Part shown: in pieces, positions 4,704 through 11,308 of the stretch
Layout of the letters: each line of letters begins with the position of its first letter
How positions within the stretch are numbered: position 1 is the stretch's first letter
IMG/VR virus record: IMGVR_UViG_2657245521_000009
DNA length: 11,592 bases
Direction: 5' to 3' (one strand)
DNA from: a virus
Lineage: Duplodnaviria > Heunggongvirae > Uroviricota > Caudoviricetes
Translations under genes and position numbers: made by a program
Notes under the pieces: model-generated
What the model was told of the DNA's origin: nothing
What the model saw: the letters and a program-made list of their open reading frames with translations, nothing else
The model's database searches: none

Positions 4704-4805
4704 ATATCCTCCAAATGTCACACTTGTATAAATACAGCATGAACTTGTATTTTACAAATTTAAATTTGTGTGACGCTAACAAAATTTACTTGTAAAATAT
4801 GAGGT
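4704..4805. promoter_or_regulatory. Divergent promoter/operator region between the cro-like and cI-like genes (OR-like)
   Basis: AT-rich; perfect 16-bp palindrome ACAAATTTAAATTTGT (4754-4769); TTGTA-N3-TACAA inverted repeat (4745-4757); ACTTGTA half-sites at 4722-4728, 4743-4749, 4788-4794; TTGTAAAAT present in both orientations (candidate -10 elements); TAAAAT 4793-4798 ends 7 nt before the repressor ATG. Confidence 0.6.
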
Positions 4806-5240
4806 ATGAAAAAAAACAACGAATCAGCTCAATACGAGACTTCAGCCAGAAGGATCAAACAGGTCCTGTATGAATTAGGCTGGAACCAAAGTCGCCTGGC
4901 TAAAGAAATTGGGGTTTCAGCTCAGGCGGTACAACAATGGGCAAAAGGTACTTCTCGACCGAATGGCCCTAATCTAACTCGACTTTCTGAAGTCACAAGC
5001 AAACCTGAAGCATGGTTTTTCAGTGATGTCAGCGGGTTATCTGAGAGTCATGCAGTACATTTACCAGAAAGTAATGGTTCAGACTTTCTCCCGCTTAGCG
5101 ATGAAGAGATCAGACTGCTAACTGTCTTCAGGAAATTTCCTTCTGTAGAGAGTAAAAACATGCTGTTAGCGTTTGAGATGAGACTTCAGGAGATAAAAGA
5201 ATACTATTCCAAATACGCTAATCCCAATAAAAACCGATAG
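4806..5240 (+). CDS. CI/RacR-like prophage repressor, HTH_XRE N-terminal domain, no S24 peptidase domain, 144 aa
   Basis: HTH QSRLAKEIGVSAQAVQQWAKG; divergent from the cro-like gene; C-terminal 60 aa lack an Ala-Gly cleavage site and Ser-Lys dyad; candidate -10 immediately upstream suggests a short or absent leader. Confidence 0.8.
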   Translation: MKKNNESAQYETSARRIKQVLYELGWNQSRLAKEIGVSAQAVQQWAKGTSRPNGPNLTRLSEVTSKPEAWFFSDVSGLSESHAVHLPESNGSDFLPLSDEEIRLLTVFRKFPSVESKNMLLAFEMRLQEIKEYYSKYANPNKNR

Positions 5241-5266: not shown

Positions 5267-5293
5267 ACAAGCCTGCTTGAAATGCAGGCTTGT
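5267..5293. terminator. Strong hairpin after the repressor gene; possible terminator lacking a U tract
   Basis: Perfect 10-bp stem ACAAGCCTGC/GCAGGCTTGT (5267-5276 / 5284-5293) with 7-nt loop; no T run on either strand, so function is uncertain. Confidence 0.3.
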
Positions 5294-5299
5294 TACACC

Positions 5300-5420
5300 T
5301 CGCATAATAAAACACTTAAATTTCATACAATTAAAAATTTTTAGTGATTTTCTCACTTTAAACACTTGTATTTATCAAATCCATTTTGTAGATTGATTGT
5401 ACAAATCCTCTAGCAACACA
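5300..5420 (+). promoter_or_regulatory. Candidate left operator/promoter (OL/PL-like) for the plus-strand early operon
   Basis: AT-rich; 10-mer ACACTTGTAT (5362-5371) is identical to 4720-4729 in the cro/cI intergenic region; further TTGTA half-sites at 5386-5390 and the palindrome TTGTACAA at 5397-5404. Confidence 0.45.
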
Positions 5421-5476: not shown

Positions 5477-5665
5477 GTGGACAAGACTGAACTGAAACAC
5501 ATTATCGCCCTGCTCCTGGAAGATGCAAAACGTCTTCAGCAGGTTGAACCAAATGCAGGCACTGAGGCCCGCATATGGTTGGCTAATAAAACACTTAATT
5601 CATTCAGAGAGTTAAGCGGTTTTGCAAGAGGGTCAGGTATCTCTACCGAACACCAACTTTCTTAG
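5477..5665 (+). CDS. Hypothetical small protein, 62 aa, GTG start
   Basis: GTG 5477 with GAGG 8 nt upstream; first ORF after the OL/PL-like region; 3' end overlaps the convergent zinc-ribbon gene by 23 nt, which lowers confidence. Confidence 0.35.
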   Translation: MDKTELKHIIALLLEDAKRLQQVEPNAGTEARIWLANKTLNSFRELSGFARGSGISTEHQLS

Positions 5666-5831
5666 CTAGCGCCTCCATAATAATAGAATGTCGTTCGCTA
5701 AGAATGCCGATTGCCGCCCCGCAAAGTGCACACTGAACGAAGTGAATAATGTGACTGCAATTTTTCACTGAGGAATTGGTTTTTAACTCAAAAGAAGTTG
5801 ATGGGCATTTTGGACAGGTTGTTACAGCCAT
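5643..5831 (-). CDS. Small zinc-ribbon protein (C-x2-C ... C-x2-C), 62 aa
   Basis: Translation MAVTTCPKCPSTSF...VQCALCGAAIG has Cys 6, 9, 34, 37; GGAGGG 6 nt before ATG 5831; transcribed against the plus-strand early operon. Confidence 0.55.
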   Translation of the reverse strand: MAVTTCPKCPSTSFELKTNSSVKNCSHIIHFVQCALCGAAIGILSERHSIIMEALAKKVGVR

Positions 5832-5923
5832 ATTTTACCCTCCACGGGGTCGATGTTGGTGGAGTTCCCGACGGACGAGGTCGGGAATGTGCGCCGGACA
5901 CAGGTATAAATCCGGCATACGAA

Positions 5924-5950
5924 ATTCGTATCACATGCAGGATATGTATT
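5924..5950. repeat. Copy B of the shared element ATTCGTATCACA(A/T)GCAG...GATATG
   Basis: Contiguous 27-mer ATTCGTATCACATGCAGGATATGTATT matching copy A (804-848) apart from the insert in A; lies 93-119 nt upstream of the zinc-ribbon gene start (minus sense). Confidence 0.6.
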
Positions 5951-6077
5951 TAAACACGAGCACATAACCGAAAACGCACTACGCAGAACCTTCCTTGTCG
6001 GGTCTGTCGTTAAATTTACTGCGATAGTGCGTTTCCGGTTATGAGTGAAAATCATAACAGTGCTGTGTGTAGTCTTT

Positions 6078-6123
6078 GACGGTATCCGTTAACAAAGTTT
6101 TCCTGGCTGATACCGTCCTTTTT
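6078..6123 (+). terminator. Intrinsic terminator, plus strand
   Basis: 9-bp stem GACGGTATC/GATACCGTC (6078-6086 / 6109-6117), 22-nt loop, then CTTTTT (6118-6123); the reverse strand has no U tract. Confidence 0.5.
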
Positions 6124-6308
6124 CAGAATGAATTTTATAGTGTGGTGAATGCGGCTCAGCGCACGTGACACAGTTAAAAACATGTCAGTCCTTCATCTGT
6201 TGATGGGTGGGAATGTTCGTCGGCAGTAATGGTTAGCTGTTTACTGTCACCGGGAGGCACCCGGCACCACACTCCAAAATTCATTGTGTTACCAGAATGG
6301 AGACAACT

Positions 6309-6599
6309 ATGCCAGTTACACCTGAAATAAAACAAAACTCAGACTGGATGCGGCGCAACAAATCTGAACAAACCGCCCCTGCCTGTAAGCCTGGTATTAT
6401 TCAGAAAATATTAAGTACGCTGAACCAGAAAGGTGACCCCACCCTTATTCCTTGCGCTTATTGTGGCAAAGCCATCAACAAAAGTGAAATCGTGGAGCAT
6501 GAACTTATTTATATAAACGGAAGTCAGCTCGCAAGAAAAACGAATCTATATTGCAGTAAACGATGTGCCGAATATGACCAGATGGCACATGAATCTTAA
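6309..6599 (+). CDS. Hypothetical Cys-containing small protein (CAYCGK ... CSKRC, possible zinc ribbon), 96 aa
   Basis: ORF 6297..6599; start set at ATG 6309, which has GGAGA 5 nt upstream; family not recognised. Confidence 0.5.
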   Translation: MPVTPEIKQNSDWMRRNKSEQTAPACKPGIIQKILSTLNQKGDPTLIPCAYCGKAINKSEIVEHELIYINGSQLARKTNLYCSKRCAEYDQMAHES

Positions 6600-7151: not shown

Positions 7152-10100
7152 ATGAGTGATAAGAAAGAAGATTTCGCGCTGTACTGCCCTGTTAAAAATG
7201 AAGAGGCCAGGAAACGACTTGGAATAAAAGCAGGCTTTTTCTGGGCAACTGCAAAAAAATTATCTGTGGCTGTTTCCCGCTGTATTGCTGCTATGGACGA
7301 TAAGGGGTATGACGAGGATGACTTTAAAAAACCTGTTCGCGTCAATTACCCCGTCGTTAACGACCTGCCTCCTGAAGGCGTGTTTGATACTGAATTCTGC
7401 AACCGTTACGAAAAAGGCGGTCAGGGTGGTATCACAATGGTACTTATCCCCGGCGCTGTTCCCGCCGATCCAATGCACGGCGAAGTCGGCAGGGATATTA
7501 CTGGCAGCGGCAACGCAGACGCAGACGCAGACGCAGGCACAGACGCAGATAATGCTACGGACAATACCGAAAGTACGCTCCTCCCCGCTTACGCTTATAA
7601 CGTCAACGGCGAACTGATGTCGGAAGTGGAAAAGGAAATGTCGCAGCCTGTTTCAGGACTAAGTCTGCCACTTCGTTTCCTGGCGCAATTTAATAACGAC
7701 TGTCCACAACATCAGGTCACACCAGAGCGTTTACGGGAGTTAAACCTTACAGAGCAGGATCCCGACAGTCGTACCGGAACTATTTTACTCGCCATCCAGA
7801 ACAGAAAGGAACAGCTCGAAAAACTGGACACAAAAAACCTGCATCCTTTGGCGACGTACATTGAAAAAGTATTTCCCTGCGGAAAACGACCACAACTCAA
7901 TGATGTCATTAATTTTATCGATGCCGTACTTAATACAGACTATGTCGATCGCGGACTGCTCGTTAAGGAATGGTGCGAAGGTCGTCGAGCCGCGTGCGTA
8001 GAGCATGTAACAGCACCAGAAACCAGGCGTGATAATACTGTGTCAGCGCAGACGGAAACGAAGACTACTGTCACTGAACGTCCGCGTCGTAGCGAAAAAA
8101 CAACGCACCGGACGATTAATTATGAAATTGGCTGTGGCTTATATGACGGCGAGCTGGATCTTCATAACCTGAGGGAACCGCTGGATTTTGCGAAACGCAT
8201 TATGGCGAAAGACCGGGAAGACTGGAAAGTATGGTCAGACACAATCAACTGCATCCCTGGCATCCTGAATTATGACCGCCAGACCATTATCGAGATGGTA
8301 CGAAAAGCCCCCACCCCGACTTATCACAGTGCTGCACTGCGCCGCGAGTGGTGTGATTCTTATCTGCGAGCCTGGGGACGGCTCGATCCCGACTGGAGCC
8401 AGAGCGCCGCTGTCAAAACAGCAGAGTCACATGAAGATGTCTGTGCTGATATCAGGAAGGCCGGAAAGCGCCTGCGTGAAATTGAATCAGGAGTTGGGAT
8501 CAATGAAGAAAAACAGACGACACAGGGAGAACTGGCAGATGAACCGTCAGCGCCTGAATCAGTGGAACCGGCTTCAGCTGAACATCAGCAGAATACGCAG
8601 CCGCTGGATGCTGAGGCATCTGTAAACACCACTAAAACGGAATTCGATGTATTTGCTCTAATGCAGAACTCATCTGTTTATGGCAGCAAAAACACACAGG
8701 AGACGACCAGCAATGTGCAGGTTCAGGACGCTGAAAAGGATGAAAAACAGGCTGGTACTGAAGTTCAGTCAGGCGAAAGCAGTCTGGGAACTGGTGAAGA
8801 GTCAGATACCAGACAGCAAGCCGATGTAAACCAGAATACGGATTCTGTCGCCCAAAATAGCGATTCTGTAAACCAAACTGAACCAGTTTTGGCACAAACC
8901 GAGCCAGAAGTGCAATCTGACGAACCGGCTGTTGTTTACCCCGCTTACTTCGAACCAGGCCGCTATGAGGGTCTGCCGAACGAGGTTTATCACGCAGCCA
9001 ACGGTATCAGCTCGACAATGGTAAAAGATGCGCGGGTGAGCCTGATGTACTTCAATGCGCGCCACGTAGAGAAAACCATTATCAAAGAACGCTCTCCTGT
9101 ACTGGATATCGGTAACCTGGTGCATGCACTGGCGTTGCAGCCAGATCAACTCGATGAAGAATTCAGCATTGAACCCGTAATTCCGGAAGGTGCATTTACC
9201 ACCACGGCAACGATCCGCGCGTTTATTGATGAGCACAACGCCAGCCTGACAGCGATGCTGTCAGCCGACGACATCAAAGCACTGTTAGAAGAGTACAACG
9301 CCACCCTTCCTGCTCAGGTTCAGTTAGGTGGTTCCGTGGAGGAAACTGGCCAGAGCTATATGTCGCTGCCAGAAGAGTTCCAGCGTCTCGAAGCGGACAA
9401 GAAGCAGACCGCAGCGGCAATGAAAGCCTGCATCAAGGAATACAACACCACACTGCCTGCACAAGTGAAAATCAGCGGTAGCCGTGATGCGTTACTCGAG
9501 CAGTTAGCAATCATCAATCCTGACCTGGTGGCGCAGGAAGCGCAGAAGCCCGCGCAGTTGAAAGTGTCCGGCACCAAAGCGGATCTGATTCAGGCCGTGA
9601 AGTCTGTTAATCCTGATGCCATCTTCGCCGACGAACTGCTGGATGCGTGGCGCGAAAATACGCAAGGGAAAGTGCTGGTCACCCGCCAGCAACTGAGCAC
9701 TGCACTGAGCATTCAGAAAGCCCTGCTCGAGCACCCTACAGCGGGCAAGCTACTGACACACCCGAGCCGCGCCGTTGAGGTGAGCTACTTCGGTTTTGAC
9801 GACGAAACCGGTCTGGAAGTCCGCGTTCGTCCCGACCTTGAGATCGATCTTGACGGGGTGCGCATCGGCGCCGACCTGAAAACCATCAGCATGTGGAACA
9901 TTAAACAGGAAGGTCTGCGCGCCAAACTGCACCGCGAAATCATCGACCGTGACTACCACCTGAGTGCTGCCATGTATTGCGAGACCGCAGCGCTTGACCA
10001 GTTCTTCTGGATTTTCGTCAACAAAGACGAGAACTACCACTGGATCGCCATCATCGAGGCATCCGCCGAACTTCTGGAACTGGGCATGCTGGAGTACCGC

Positions 10101-10256
10101 AAGGCAATGCGCGCCATCGCTACCGGCTTTGACACTGGCGAGTGGCCAGCGCCGATCACCTCCGGTAACTCCGATGAAATAGCCGACTACACCGACGAAC
10201 TGAACGATTTCGACACACGCCGCCTTGAAGCGCTGCGTACGGCACAAGGGGAATGA
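7152..10256 (+). CDS. recE: RecE-like exodeoxyribonuclease VIII (5'-3' dsDNA exonuclease with PD-(D/E)XK-type C-terminal domain), 1034 aa
   Basis: N-terminal segments NYPVVNDLPPEG, LPLRFLAQ and EHQQNTQPLDAEASVN resemble E. coli RecE as I recall it; C-terminal region has GLPNEVYHAANGISSTMVKD and RPDLEIDLDG...GADLKT consistent with a PD-(D/E)XK nuclease; followed by a start-overlapping annealing-protein gene. Confidence 0.8.
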   Translation: MSDKKEDFALYCPVKNEEARKRLGIKAGFFWATAKKLSVAVSRCIAAMDDKGYDEDDFKKPVRVNYPVVNDLPPEGVFDTEFCNRYEKGGQGGITMVLIPGAVPADPMHGEVGRDITGSGNADADADAGTDADNATDNTESTLLPAYAYNVNGELMSEVEKEMSQPVSGLSLPLRFLAQFNNDCPQHQVTPERLRELNLTEQDPDSRTGTILLAIQNRKEQLEKLDTKNLHPLATYIEKVFPCGKRPQLNDVINFIDAVLNTDYVDRGLLVKEWCEGRRAACVEHVTAPETRRDNTVSAQTETKTTVTERPRRSEKTTHRTINYEIGCGLYDGELDLHNLREPLDFAKRIMAKDREDWKVWSDTINCIPGILNYDRQTIIEMVRKAPTPTYHSAALRREWCDSYLRAWGRLDPDWSQSAAVKTAESHEDVCADIRKAGKRLREIESGVGINEEKQTTQGELADEPSAPESVEPASAEHQQNTQPLDAEASVNTTKTEFDVFALMQNSSVYGSKNTQETTSNVQVQDAEKDEKQAGTEVQSGESSLGTGEESDTRQQADVNQNTDSVAQNSDSVNQTEPVLAQTEPEVQSDEPAVVYPAYFEPGRYEGLPNEVYHAANGISSTMVKDARVSLMYFNARHVEKTIIKERSPVLDIGNLVHALALQPDQLDEEFSIEPVIPEGAFTTTATIRAFIDEHNASLTAMLSADDIKALLEEYNATLPAQVQLGGSVEETGQSYMSLPEEFQRLEADKKQTAAAMKACIKEYNTTLPAQVKISGSRDALLEQLAIINPDLVAQEAQKPAQLKVSGTKADLIQAVKSVNPDAIFADELLDAWRENTQGKVLVTRQQLSTALSIQKALLEHPTAGKLLTHPSRAVEVSYFGFDDETGLEVRVRPDLEIDLDGVRIGADLKTISMWNIKQEGLRAKLHREIIDRDYHLSAAMYCETAALDQFFWIFVNKDENYHWIAIIEASAELLELGMLEYRKAMRAIATGFDTGEWPAPITSGNSDEIADYTDELNDFDTRRLEALRTAQGE
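7515..7550 (+). repeat. In-frame tandem hexanucleotide repeat (GCAGAC)n inside recE
   Basis: GCAGAC x3 then GCAGGC, ACAGAC, GCAGAT; encodes ADADADAGTDAD in an acidic linker. Confidence 0.8.
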
Positions 10257-11308
10257 TGATGGAAAAAAACAACGTAGCAGTAATTGAACATAACGAACCG
10301 AGCACGATGAATAACACATCCCTGCTTCTGAATATCGACGTCATGGATCGCATGATGAAGCTAGCAGAGGTGATGTCTCAGGGCGTCGCGACAGTACCGA
10401 AACATCTACAGGGAAGACCTTCTGATTGTCTGGCAATAATCATGCAGGCCGCTCGTTGGGGTATGGACCCATTTGTTGTAGGACAGAAAACACACCTGGT
10501 TAACGGGGCTCTGGGTTATGAAGCACAGCTTTACAACGCTTTAATCACCAGCTCCAAAGTTGTACACGGGCGCTTTAAATACGAGTACGGCGGTGAGTGG
10601 GAAAAAATTGTTGGCAAAAAAGACGGGCGTGATGAATCAGGTTTGTTTGTTCGTGTCGGAGCAGTTCTTCGAGGCGAGACAGAGGTGACCTGGGGAGAGC
10701 CAATTTACCTTGCTGATATTACTACGCGAAATTCCCCTTTGTGGAAAACCGCACCTAAACAGCAAATAGGTTATTTGGCCGTTAAGTATTGGGCGAGGAC
10801 TTACTGCCCTGAAGTCACAATGGGTGTTTATGACAGAGAAGATCTGGAACAACGAACAGAGCGCGAAATTAACCCTGCACCAATCCAACGAATGAGCGCT
10901 GCTGAAATCGCAGGTGACACCGTCACAACCACACAAAACACGCAGGAATCGTCAGTAAATATCGACTCACTGGCTGATGTTTTCCGCGAACGCATCAATG
11001 CTACGCAGGATGTAGACAGCGCCAAAGTAGTCCGGGCTGATATCGAAAGCGCGAAGGTCACACTCGGTTCGGCTCTGTTCACCGAACTGAAAAACAAGGC
11101 AGTGAAGCGCTATTACCTGGTAGATCACCGCAACAAAGTTGAAGCCGCGATCAACTCCCTGCCGTCTCCGGACGAACCGAATGCAGCAGAACGGTTCGGA
11201 GAAGTTGAGCGAGCTCTTGCTGCGGCCAAACGTCACCTGGGTGACGAGCTGCACGATCAGTTCAGCATCACCCTGGCAGATATGAAACCGGAATACATCA
11301 CTGCATAA
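10253..11308 (+). CDS. recT: RecT/Red-beta-superfamily single-strand annealing protein (putative), 351 aa
   Basis: Start overlaps the recE stop (ATGATGATG, three candidate ATGs at 10253, 10256, 10259; the AAGGGGA SD favours the second or third); motifs ALGYEAQLYNALITSSKV and PLWKTAPKQQIGYLAVKYWAR resemble conserved RecT blocks from memory; synteny with recE. Confidence 0.55.
   Translation: MMMEKNNVAVIEHNEPSTMNNTSLLLNIDVMDRMMKLAEVMSQGVATVPKHLQGRPSDCLAIIMQAARWGMDPFVVGQKTHLVNGALGYEAQLYNALITSSKVVHGRFKYEYGGEWEKIVGKKDGRDESGLFVRVGAVLRGETEVTWGEPIYLADITTRNSPLWKTAPKQQIGYLAVKYWARTYCPEVTMGVYDREDLEQRTEREINPAPIQRMSAAEIAGDTVTTTQNTQESSVNIDSLADVFRERINATQDVDSAKVVRADIESAKVTLGSALFTELKNKAVKRYYLVDHRNKVEAAINSLPSPDEPNAAERFGEVERALAAAKRHLGDELHDQFSITLADMKPEYITA

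Follow-up and report, generated by a model that had tools for sequence, protein, structure and literature searches.

KilS is an annotated but barely characterised sRNA of the Rac prophage of Escherichia coli K-12. As reported, it was predicted by RIL-seq and verified by northern blot, its transcription starts at 1418502, an RNase E site lies at 1418471, and the authors concluded that it is independently transcribable; a single RIL-seq partner, yncL, is listed in K-12 (Bar et al. 2021, PMC8175672). For DicF, the related sRNA of the Qin prophage, RNase III processing at the 3' end has been reported, which gives a 72-nt form. Additionally, RNase E cleavage of RprA, a core-genome Hfq sRNA, leaves a shortened 3' form, and STnc100 is a known prophage sRNA family and a relative of PasD. 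In the sib region of phage lambda, an RNase III-sensitive duplex forms only in transcripts that span both halves of the element, and the promoter or terminator that defines the RNA decides its RNase III sensitivity. In that system, antitermination sets the difference at the 3' end, and the RNA under control is the int mRNA.

In this study, we analysed a window, that is, the whole stretch of 11,592 nucleotides of phage DNA, and compared an interval in front of its recombination genes with these systems. We put a probability of about 0.72 on the reading that this interval is a divergent counterpart of KilS and a paralogue of DicF, which would encode a plus-strand sRNA of about 100 nt and thus belong to a kind of sRNA that is already known.

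Genomic context of the locus

Judged from its sequence, the window corresponds to the immunity and early-left part of a lambdoid prophage of the Rac-like kind. The minus strand carries Cro/YdaS-like, CII/YdaT-like, and replication genes. The gene order matches that of Rac, with a sieB-position gene followed by the leader and the kil/ydaE-racC-recET genes, and a racC-position gene on the plus strand lies downstream of the YdaE homologue (Table 1). The predicted sRNA locus is placed inside the long untranslated leader before the ydaE/racC/recE/recT genes of the early-left operon. In the 96-aa protein encoded directly after the leader, the C-terminal half is homologous to YdaE, with 43% identity to K-12 YdaE. 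Comparison of this protein with KilR gave no similarity, and the predicted KilS-type sRNA has no kilR at this place.

The ACTTGTA-type repeats of the cro-repressor spacer (4720-4800) recur at 5364-5410, past the repressor gene, and a terminator-like hairpin (5267-5293) is located after the repressor gene and before the recurring repeats. The region at 5364-5410 (~5360-5410) is likely to be the early-left operator and promoter, and its transcripts would consequently run antisense through the Zn-ribbon gene. Megablast of the window against 5426 complete E. coli genomes gave no match, and homology emerged only in a sensitive search mode. Because no match was found among these genomes, the host of the prophage is, on sequence comparison, not E. 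coli. Assembly GCA_037004945.1 shows no difference from the window over 5832-6308.

Table 1. Positions of the features discussed, in window coordinates
Feature	Position	Strand	Remarks
HTH repressor	4806-5240	+	
Small phage ORF	5477-5665	+	
62-aa Zn-ribbon gene	5831..5643	-	occupies the sieB slot of Rac
77-aa ORF	5822..6055 (6055..5822)	-	no SD, odd composition; judged non-coding
Small hairpin GCCGGA/TCCGGC	5893..5916	+	arms 5893-5898/5911-5916; loop holds TATAAA
15-bp palindrome ATACGAAATTCGTAT	5917..5931		lineage-specific, not above chance
Left arm of the long inverted repeat	5963..5986	+	predicted upstream of the sRNA promoter and outside the primary sRNA
Motif GTTAAATTT in the repeat loop	6009..6017	+	predicted -10 TAAATT at 6011-6016
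Right arm of the inverted repeat	6019..6043	+	predicted sRNA 5' end from ~6023
Predicted KilS-like sRNA	6023..6123	+	primary transcript of ~101 nt; aligns to all of K-12 kilS
Small hairpin GTTATGA/TCATAAC	6038..6058	+	arms 6038-6044/6052-6058; two compensatory pairs
Segment shared with RprA	6041..6078	+	RprA nt 44-79; includes presumed seed TGCTGTGTGTAGTC at 6061-6074
43-aa ORF	6052..6183 (6183..6052)	-	ATG, SD AAGGA; antisense to the predicted sRNA; judged non-coding
Intrinsic terminator	6078..6123	+	9-bp stem 6078-6086/6109-6117, 22-nt interior, T5 at 6119-6123
STnc100-like structured leader of the next gene	6117..6321	+	context, outside the sRNA
YdaE homologue, 96 aa	6309-6599	+	gene after the leader
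recE	7152-10256	+	
recT	10253-11308	+	

Identification of a KilS-like sRNA

In a sensitive BLAST search, positions 6001-6311 share ~72% identity with the 300-bp stretch that precedes kilR in E. coli Rac. Matches of this kilR-upstream type are found in 4621 of the 5426 complete E. coli genomes, and dicB-upstream matches are found in other prophages. In the MG1655 annotation, the kilR-upstream stretch contains kilS (b4833), which spans 98 nt at 1418405-1418502. kilS aligns over its full length to approximately 6023-6123 of the window with a local score of 43, and a 14-nt seed is identical in both. The presumed seed is unchanged in Rac, TOE17, and the window. A target search for this seed within the window returned its own site as the sole match, and an Rfam scan at gathering thresholds gave no match in the window.

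Similar to kilS, the predicted sRNA has the sieB-position gene on one side and the kil/ydaE-racC-recE-recT genes on the other. Common to both are also the -10 9-mer, the seed UGCUGUGUGUAGUC, a repeat that brackets this 9-mer, the same type of terminator, and a length, predicted for the window, of ~100 nt. In contrast, the overall identity is limited to the value given above, and the stem and interior of the window terminator differ from those of K-12. Moreover, the extended -10 TG of Rac is absent (CGTTAAATT in the window versus TGTTAAATT in Rac), the small hairpin contains an extra block of 6 nt, and the gene downstream is the YdaE homologue instead of kilR.

Within the predicted sRNA, the small hairpin at 6038-6058 is built in part from the 3' end of the long repeat's right arm. 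Since both structures use this segment, the small hairpin and the long hairpin are mutually exclusive. By analogy with K-12, where the RNase E site at 1418471 is located 4 nt before UUGCUGUG, cleavage by RNase E is expected directly on the 3' side of the small hairpin.

Comparison with DicF and RprA

The DicF model (RF00039) scored 24.1 bits at 6064-6118 of the window, under the gathering threshold of 48. Across the series, the same model gave 76.7 bits for DicF itself, 45 bits for the closest relative (L255), 43.3 bits for TOE17, and 39.1 bits for K-12 KilS. Similar to dicF in Qin, the locus has an upstream module of repeat plus motif, a terminator hairpin, an STnc100-like leader, and a position in the division-inhibitor slot, as well as a role in the early-left operon. 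In Qin, the module upstream of dicF consists of a CATAACGCGAAAGCGCA / GTGCGCTTCCGGTTGTG repeat around GTCGTTAAATTT. Processing is expected to be alike, with a 5' end generated by RNase E and a 3' end generated by termination or RNase III. In contrast, the 5' seed with which DicF pairs to ftsZ (UUUCUGGUGACGUUUGG) is absent from the window, which has UGCUGUGUGUAGUCUUUG instead, and the ~110-nt insert that separates the repeat from the sRNA in Qin is missing.

Pattern scans of IMG/VR yielded 190 loci of 8 sequence types. Across these loci, the seed varies among KilS-type, DicF-type, and two other forms, and the upstream module, the terminator type, and the leader are common to them. Furthermore, mosaic loci carry a KilS seed followed by the true DicF hairpin.

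Approximately 36 nt of RprA (nt 44-79) align to 6041-6078, including an exact run of 18 nt. The local score of this alignment was 40, compared with 14.4 ± 2.2 for shuffled sequences, and 0 of 2000 shuffles reached it. The RprA model (RF00034) gave 30.1 bits on the window (E 0.28), under the gathering threshold of 70. In both RNAs, the shared segment stands directly before a GC-rich terminator. In contrast, the window lacks the 5' stem-loop of RprA, the terminators differ, and, by inspection only, most of the rpoS-pairing region of RprA appears to be missing. A literature search found nothing that links RprA with KilS or Rac.

A putative promoter motif in the loop of the repeat

The 9-mer GTTAAATTT is identical in the window and E. 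coli K-12, and in K-12 the KilS start (1418502) falls 7 nt past TAAATT, within TGTTAAATTT. Because the -10 9-mer is the same and the K-12 start is mapped, analogy predicts an sRNA start near G6023. Since the loop of the repeat contains this predicted -10, the sRNA would have its 5' end in the right arm, with the left arm upstream of the promoter. An RNA that starts inside the right arm could therefore not form the full hairpin in its primary form.

The 9-mer is invariant in the relatives found by BLAST, namely Rac, TOE17, and Qin. In more distant loci, the loop carries variants (GTTAATCC, GTTTAATCC, and TAAATC), and the canonical -10 is not kept. Neither sequence inspection nor a promoter scan recognised a -35 element for the internal promoter. 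Because both the extended -10 TG and a -35 are missing, the internal promoter may be weak or inactive in the prophage of the window.

These promoter features bear on the main alternative explanation, in which there is no independent gene: the sRNA would arise only through termination and processing of the early-left transcript by RNase E and RNase III, and the loop motif would have a structural or binding function. The missing TG and -35 of the window and the poor -10 elements of the distant loop variants agree with it. DicF, moreover, has been described as processed from the ydfABC-dicF-dicB transcript, and the leader of ~450 nt, upstream hairpins included, is conserved as a plus-strand unit, also in Qin, whose upstream gene is on the plus strand. 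In contrast, a primary start has been mapped in K-12 at the stated distance downstream of the motif, the authors of that work concluded that KilS is independently transcribable, and the 9-mer is retained without change in the window. Furthermore, the upstream gene lies on the opposite strand in the window, TOE17, L255, and Rac, so that read-through would run antisense to it. On balance, we regard an origin by processing alone as unlikely, and an sRNA with its own start in the right arm remains our preferred reading.

Terminator and downstream leader

The plus-strand terminator described in the initial annotation was verified, including its 9-bp stem and T5 tract. Relative to Rac, the stem shows compensatory changes, with GACGGTATC/GATACCGTC in one and GGCGGCATCAG/CTGATG(T)CCGCC in the other. 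On sequence comparison, the terminator of the predicted sRNA is homologous to that of DicF.

The STnc100 model (RF02076) scored 39.5 bits (E 7e-7) at 6117-6321, under its gathering threshold of 47, and the dicF-dicB and kilS-kilR spacers of K-12 scored 28-34 bits, also below threshold. The outer stem of this leader (24 nt, 6124-6147/6265-6288) starts directly after the terminator and differs from Rac by compensatory changes, and its right arm stops just before the SD of the next gene. RNase III cleavage at this outer stem probably accounts for the 72-nt form of DicF. In four KilS-type loci (L255, L261, L272, and L287), the repeat, the sRNA, and the terminator are kept, there is no STnc100-like leader, and a gene follows directly. 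Since these leaderless loci keep all three elements, the sRNA unit looks like a portable module.

Conservation of the long hairpin

The inverted repeat was recovered at exactly the coordinates given previously, with 5963-5986 pairing to 6019-6043. The single mismatch and single bulge noted at that time correspond to A5971/C6035 and A6024, respectively, and the mismatch does become a G-U pair on the minus strand, as had been claimed. The segment 5885-6130 folds with -76.9 kcal/mol on the plus strand (z -4.7) and with -79.8 kcal/mol on the minus strand (z -5.3); on either strand, none of 200 shuffles was as low.

Covariation had been suggested as a check on the stem, and compensatory substitutions are present in homologous prophages (~60 distinct sequences). 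Standard pairs occupy 88% and 85% of the cells in two alignments of distinct family sequences (A4 with 61 rows and A6 with 58 rows, respectively), and since the rows derive from about ten lineages, these pair-count figures express consistency and not a formal probability. When the 3' partner was slid, the paired cells dropped to 29-49%. Changes on both sides were observed at 7 and 10 hairpin pairs in the 61-row and 58-row alignments (88 and 97 cells, respectively), and the covariation score of the hairpin was reached by 0 of 500 shuffles. The distal stem is wholly different among the types, and its pairing is still kept: it reads CACTACGCAG/CTGCG-A-TAGTG in the window, CACGGCGA/TCG-A-CCGTG in Qin, and CATTTCC/GGGAGTG in Rac. 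Because pairing is held by compensatory changes across the family, we conclude from these alignments that the long hairpin is selected as a helix.

The A.C mismatch at 5971/6035 does not vary among the 61 or the 58 distinct family sequences, and it is flanked by the invariant CGAA / TTCCGGTT. This combination suggests a specific recognition site and not a plain helix. Regarding the strand, the hairpin is more stable on the plus strand in 57 of the 61 members, with means of -33.8 and -28.8 kcal/mol for the plus and minus strands, respectively. In most members, the G.U pairs favour the plus strand, whereas the invariant A.C favours the minus strand. The window is an exception, and its minus-strand hairpin is the more stable one (-38.8 versus -34.6 kcal/mol).

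One family locus, L256 (IMG/VR contig 2563367006_000010), is a decayed copy in which a deletion between the arms takes out the loop motif; its seed is mutated as well (TGCTGTGTATTTTGG).

The upstream TATAAA and the extent of the transcript

The initial annotation had proposed a noncoding unit of ~200 nt that runs from TATAAA (5905-5910) through the hairpin to the terminator. An sRNA gene that ends at this terminator is retained here, and the long RNA from TATAAA is not. The hexamer does exist, but it sits in the loop of the small hairpin at 5893-5916, and across relatives the stem of this hairpin is kept and the loop hexamer is not. Its counterpart is GTAAGCAC in L255, GTGTGAAT in TOE17, and GTGCGCAT in Qin. 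At TATAAA, there is no -35, and the promoter scan gave no match. Furthermore, the RNA of K-12 is 98 nt by northern blot and RNA-seq. A longer RNA would fit the good plus-strand fold of the full hairpin and the preference for this strand across the family, and plus-strand transcription through the conserved upstream hairpins must have some promoter. Nevertheless, given the evidence at TATAAA and the size of the K-12 RNA, we consider a ~200-nt sRNA highly improbable and retain the shorter KilS-like RNA.

The 15-bp palindrome, which had been assigned to the expected start site, is present, but it occurs at chance level and is absent from all relatives. The window contains 7 perfect palindromes with arms of >=7 and a spacer of <=3, compared with 3.1 ± 1.9 in shuffled sequences. 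As a candidate operator, the palindrome was rejected: the window holds no second copy, even when 3 mismatches are allowed, the palindrome is unlike the ACTTGTA-type repeats between cro and the repressor gene, and the relatives lack it. In the neighbouring sequence, 5898-5918 is 81% similar to 4720-4740 of the operator region. This likeness is probably a coincidence, because TOE17 and Qin also keep 5898-5918, and their repressors carry different annotations.

Minus-strand readings and a DNA-level element

The gap between the Zn-ribbon gene and the next plus-strand gene had been described as having no ORF of 60 aa or more with an SD. The gap is not ORF-free, with ORFs of 43 and 77 aa on the minus strand, and both are judged non-coding. 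For the 43-aa ORF, the sequence of the start and SD region is fully diverged in relatives, where the start is ATG, GTG, or TTG, and across the types the frames shift and the stops differ. The minus strand repeatedly shows a peptide-like block, LTV.RALSRIH.I.KF.LK, but this merely reflects conservation of the nucleotides beneath it, and the amino-acid changes within it coincide with compensatory changes in the outer stem of the plus strand. Searches of Pfam and PHROG gave no match for either ORF, and gene callers predicted the 43-aa ORF in 1 of 3 near-identical assemblies. A coding role of the two ORFs was rejected on the basis of the lack of conservation and of family matches.

A functional minus strand could mean that the hairpin belongs to the 5' UTR of the mRNA for the Zn-ribbon/sieB-position gene, or that the 43-aa product is real, possibly in a toxin-antitoxin-like arrangement. 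The minus-strand hairpin is the stabler one in the window, the invariant mismatch becomes G.U on this strand, and the ORF has an ATG and a good SD and is predicted by the caller of one assembly. However, the start and SD have diverged, the frames and stops vary, and the peptide block rests on the compensatory nucleotides of the plus-strand stem. Moreover, Qin has the same module without a minus-strand gene upstream, and the plus-strand hairpin is the stabler in nearly the whole family. A minus-strand function is thus very unlikely in our assessment, and the type I toxin-antitoxin partner that had been considered earlier is not supported, as start, frame, and stop of the 43-aa ORF are not conserved and family matches are lacking.

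Finally, the initial annotation had raised a protein-binding cruciform, and a DNA-level element, either a cruciform or a protein-binding palindrome, might control the promoter in the loop. The promoter-like motif does sit precisely between the two arms, and the invariant CGAA / TTCCGGTT core with its A.C might serve sequence-specific recognition. This reading is nevertheless hardly credible, given that complementarity is held while the sequence changes and that many members carry 2-3 G.T wobbles together with the bulge and the A.C mismatch, which RNA tolerates far better than an extruded DNA cruciform.

Proposed mechanism and implications

In the preferred reading, the KilS-like sRNA of ~100 nt (~6023-6123) would be transcribed from the internal promoter with the -10 TAAATT, its start being transferred from E. 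coli K-12. It would comprise a 5' segment from the right arm, the small hairpin, the single-stranded seed UGCUGUGUGUAGUC, which also occurs in RprA, and a terminator of the DicF type that ends in a U tail. On the model of KilS, DicF, and RprA, the sRNA is predicted to bind Hfq. RNase E may trim it just upstream of the seed to a form of ~65 nt, and this trimmed form would base-pair with host or phage mRNAs. Additionally, the terminator would attenuate transcription of the downstream genes.

The least certain step concerns the long hairpin, which would act only in RNAs that start upstream, for example, in early-left read-through from ~5360-5410, since only those RNAs hold both arms. In such transcripts, the hairpin might make the 5' part of the sRNA inaccessible, and the duplex of ~24 bp could conceivably serve as an RNase III substrate, which is pure conjecture. 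The fate of the sRNA would then be set by the point at which transcription starts, much like retroregulation by lambda sib. In contrast to sib, the difference proposed here would be set at the 5' end, the promoter lies in the loop, the sRNA itself would be the target, and the two elements have no sequence relation.

A cis role, which had been suggested earlier as antitermination, is possible in longer read-through transcripts. Similar to put of HK022, the locus would be a structured early-operon RNA upstream of a terminator that requires read-through. A put-like antiterminator was considered and rejected: the putL / PL-nun region of HK022 gave no significant local alignment with the window, and the architecture differs.

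In the literature searched, several features of this family are undescribed. KilS-type and DicF-type loci share an upstream hairpin module, with the mapped -10 of KilS in its loop. The body of the sRNA is modular, with different seeds before the same terminator and leader. Moreover, the seed region of KilS is common to RprA. We tentatively consider two linked readings, although they are rather doubtful: the repeat that brackets the promoter could sense where the transcript starts, and the sRNA with the RprA 3' region might imitate some of the RprA regulon or compete for that regulon. In a lysogen, transcription from the internal promoter would yield an RNA that has the right arm only, free of RNase III. 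Upon induction, read-through would add the left arm, and the resulting duplex of ~24 bp would redirect the processing of both the sRNA and the kil/recET message. If the hairpin ties sRNA biogenesis to the promoter used, the lysogeny-to-induction decision would be linked to sRNA output. If true, this would have a bearing on how the division inhibitor and the recombination genes are expressed in enterobacterial prophages of a very widespread group.

Further structures upstream of the repeat

Just 5' of the left arm, E. coli K-12 Rac (L129) carries an element similar to an H-type pseudoknot, which reads ACCACC-GAA-GCCCGG-A-GGTGGT-GAAATAAAA-CCGGGC; L101, L159, and related types have the element as well. 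In other types, GCCTG/CAGGC replaces GCCCGG/CCGGGC, which represents covariation. The element is missing from the window.

A plus-strand hairpin at 5865-5887 (TTCCCGAC/GTCGGGAA) belongs to the conserved leader upstream of the repeat. It shows compensatory changes in relatives, with TTCCCAAC/GTTGGGAA in L255 and TTCTCCAC/GTGGAGA in TOE17 and Qin. Additionally, on the minus strand at 5839-5864, an upstream CUCCAC is able to pair with the SD (GUGGAGGG) of the Zn-ribbon gene, which may give an SD-sequestering hairpin. At the corresponding position, TOE17 has CUCCU/AGGAG.
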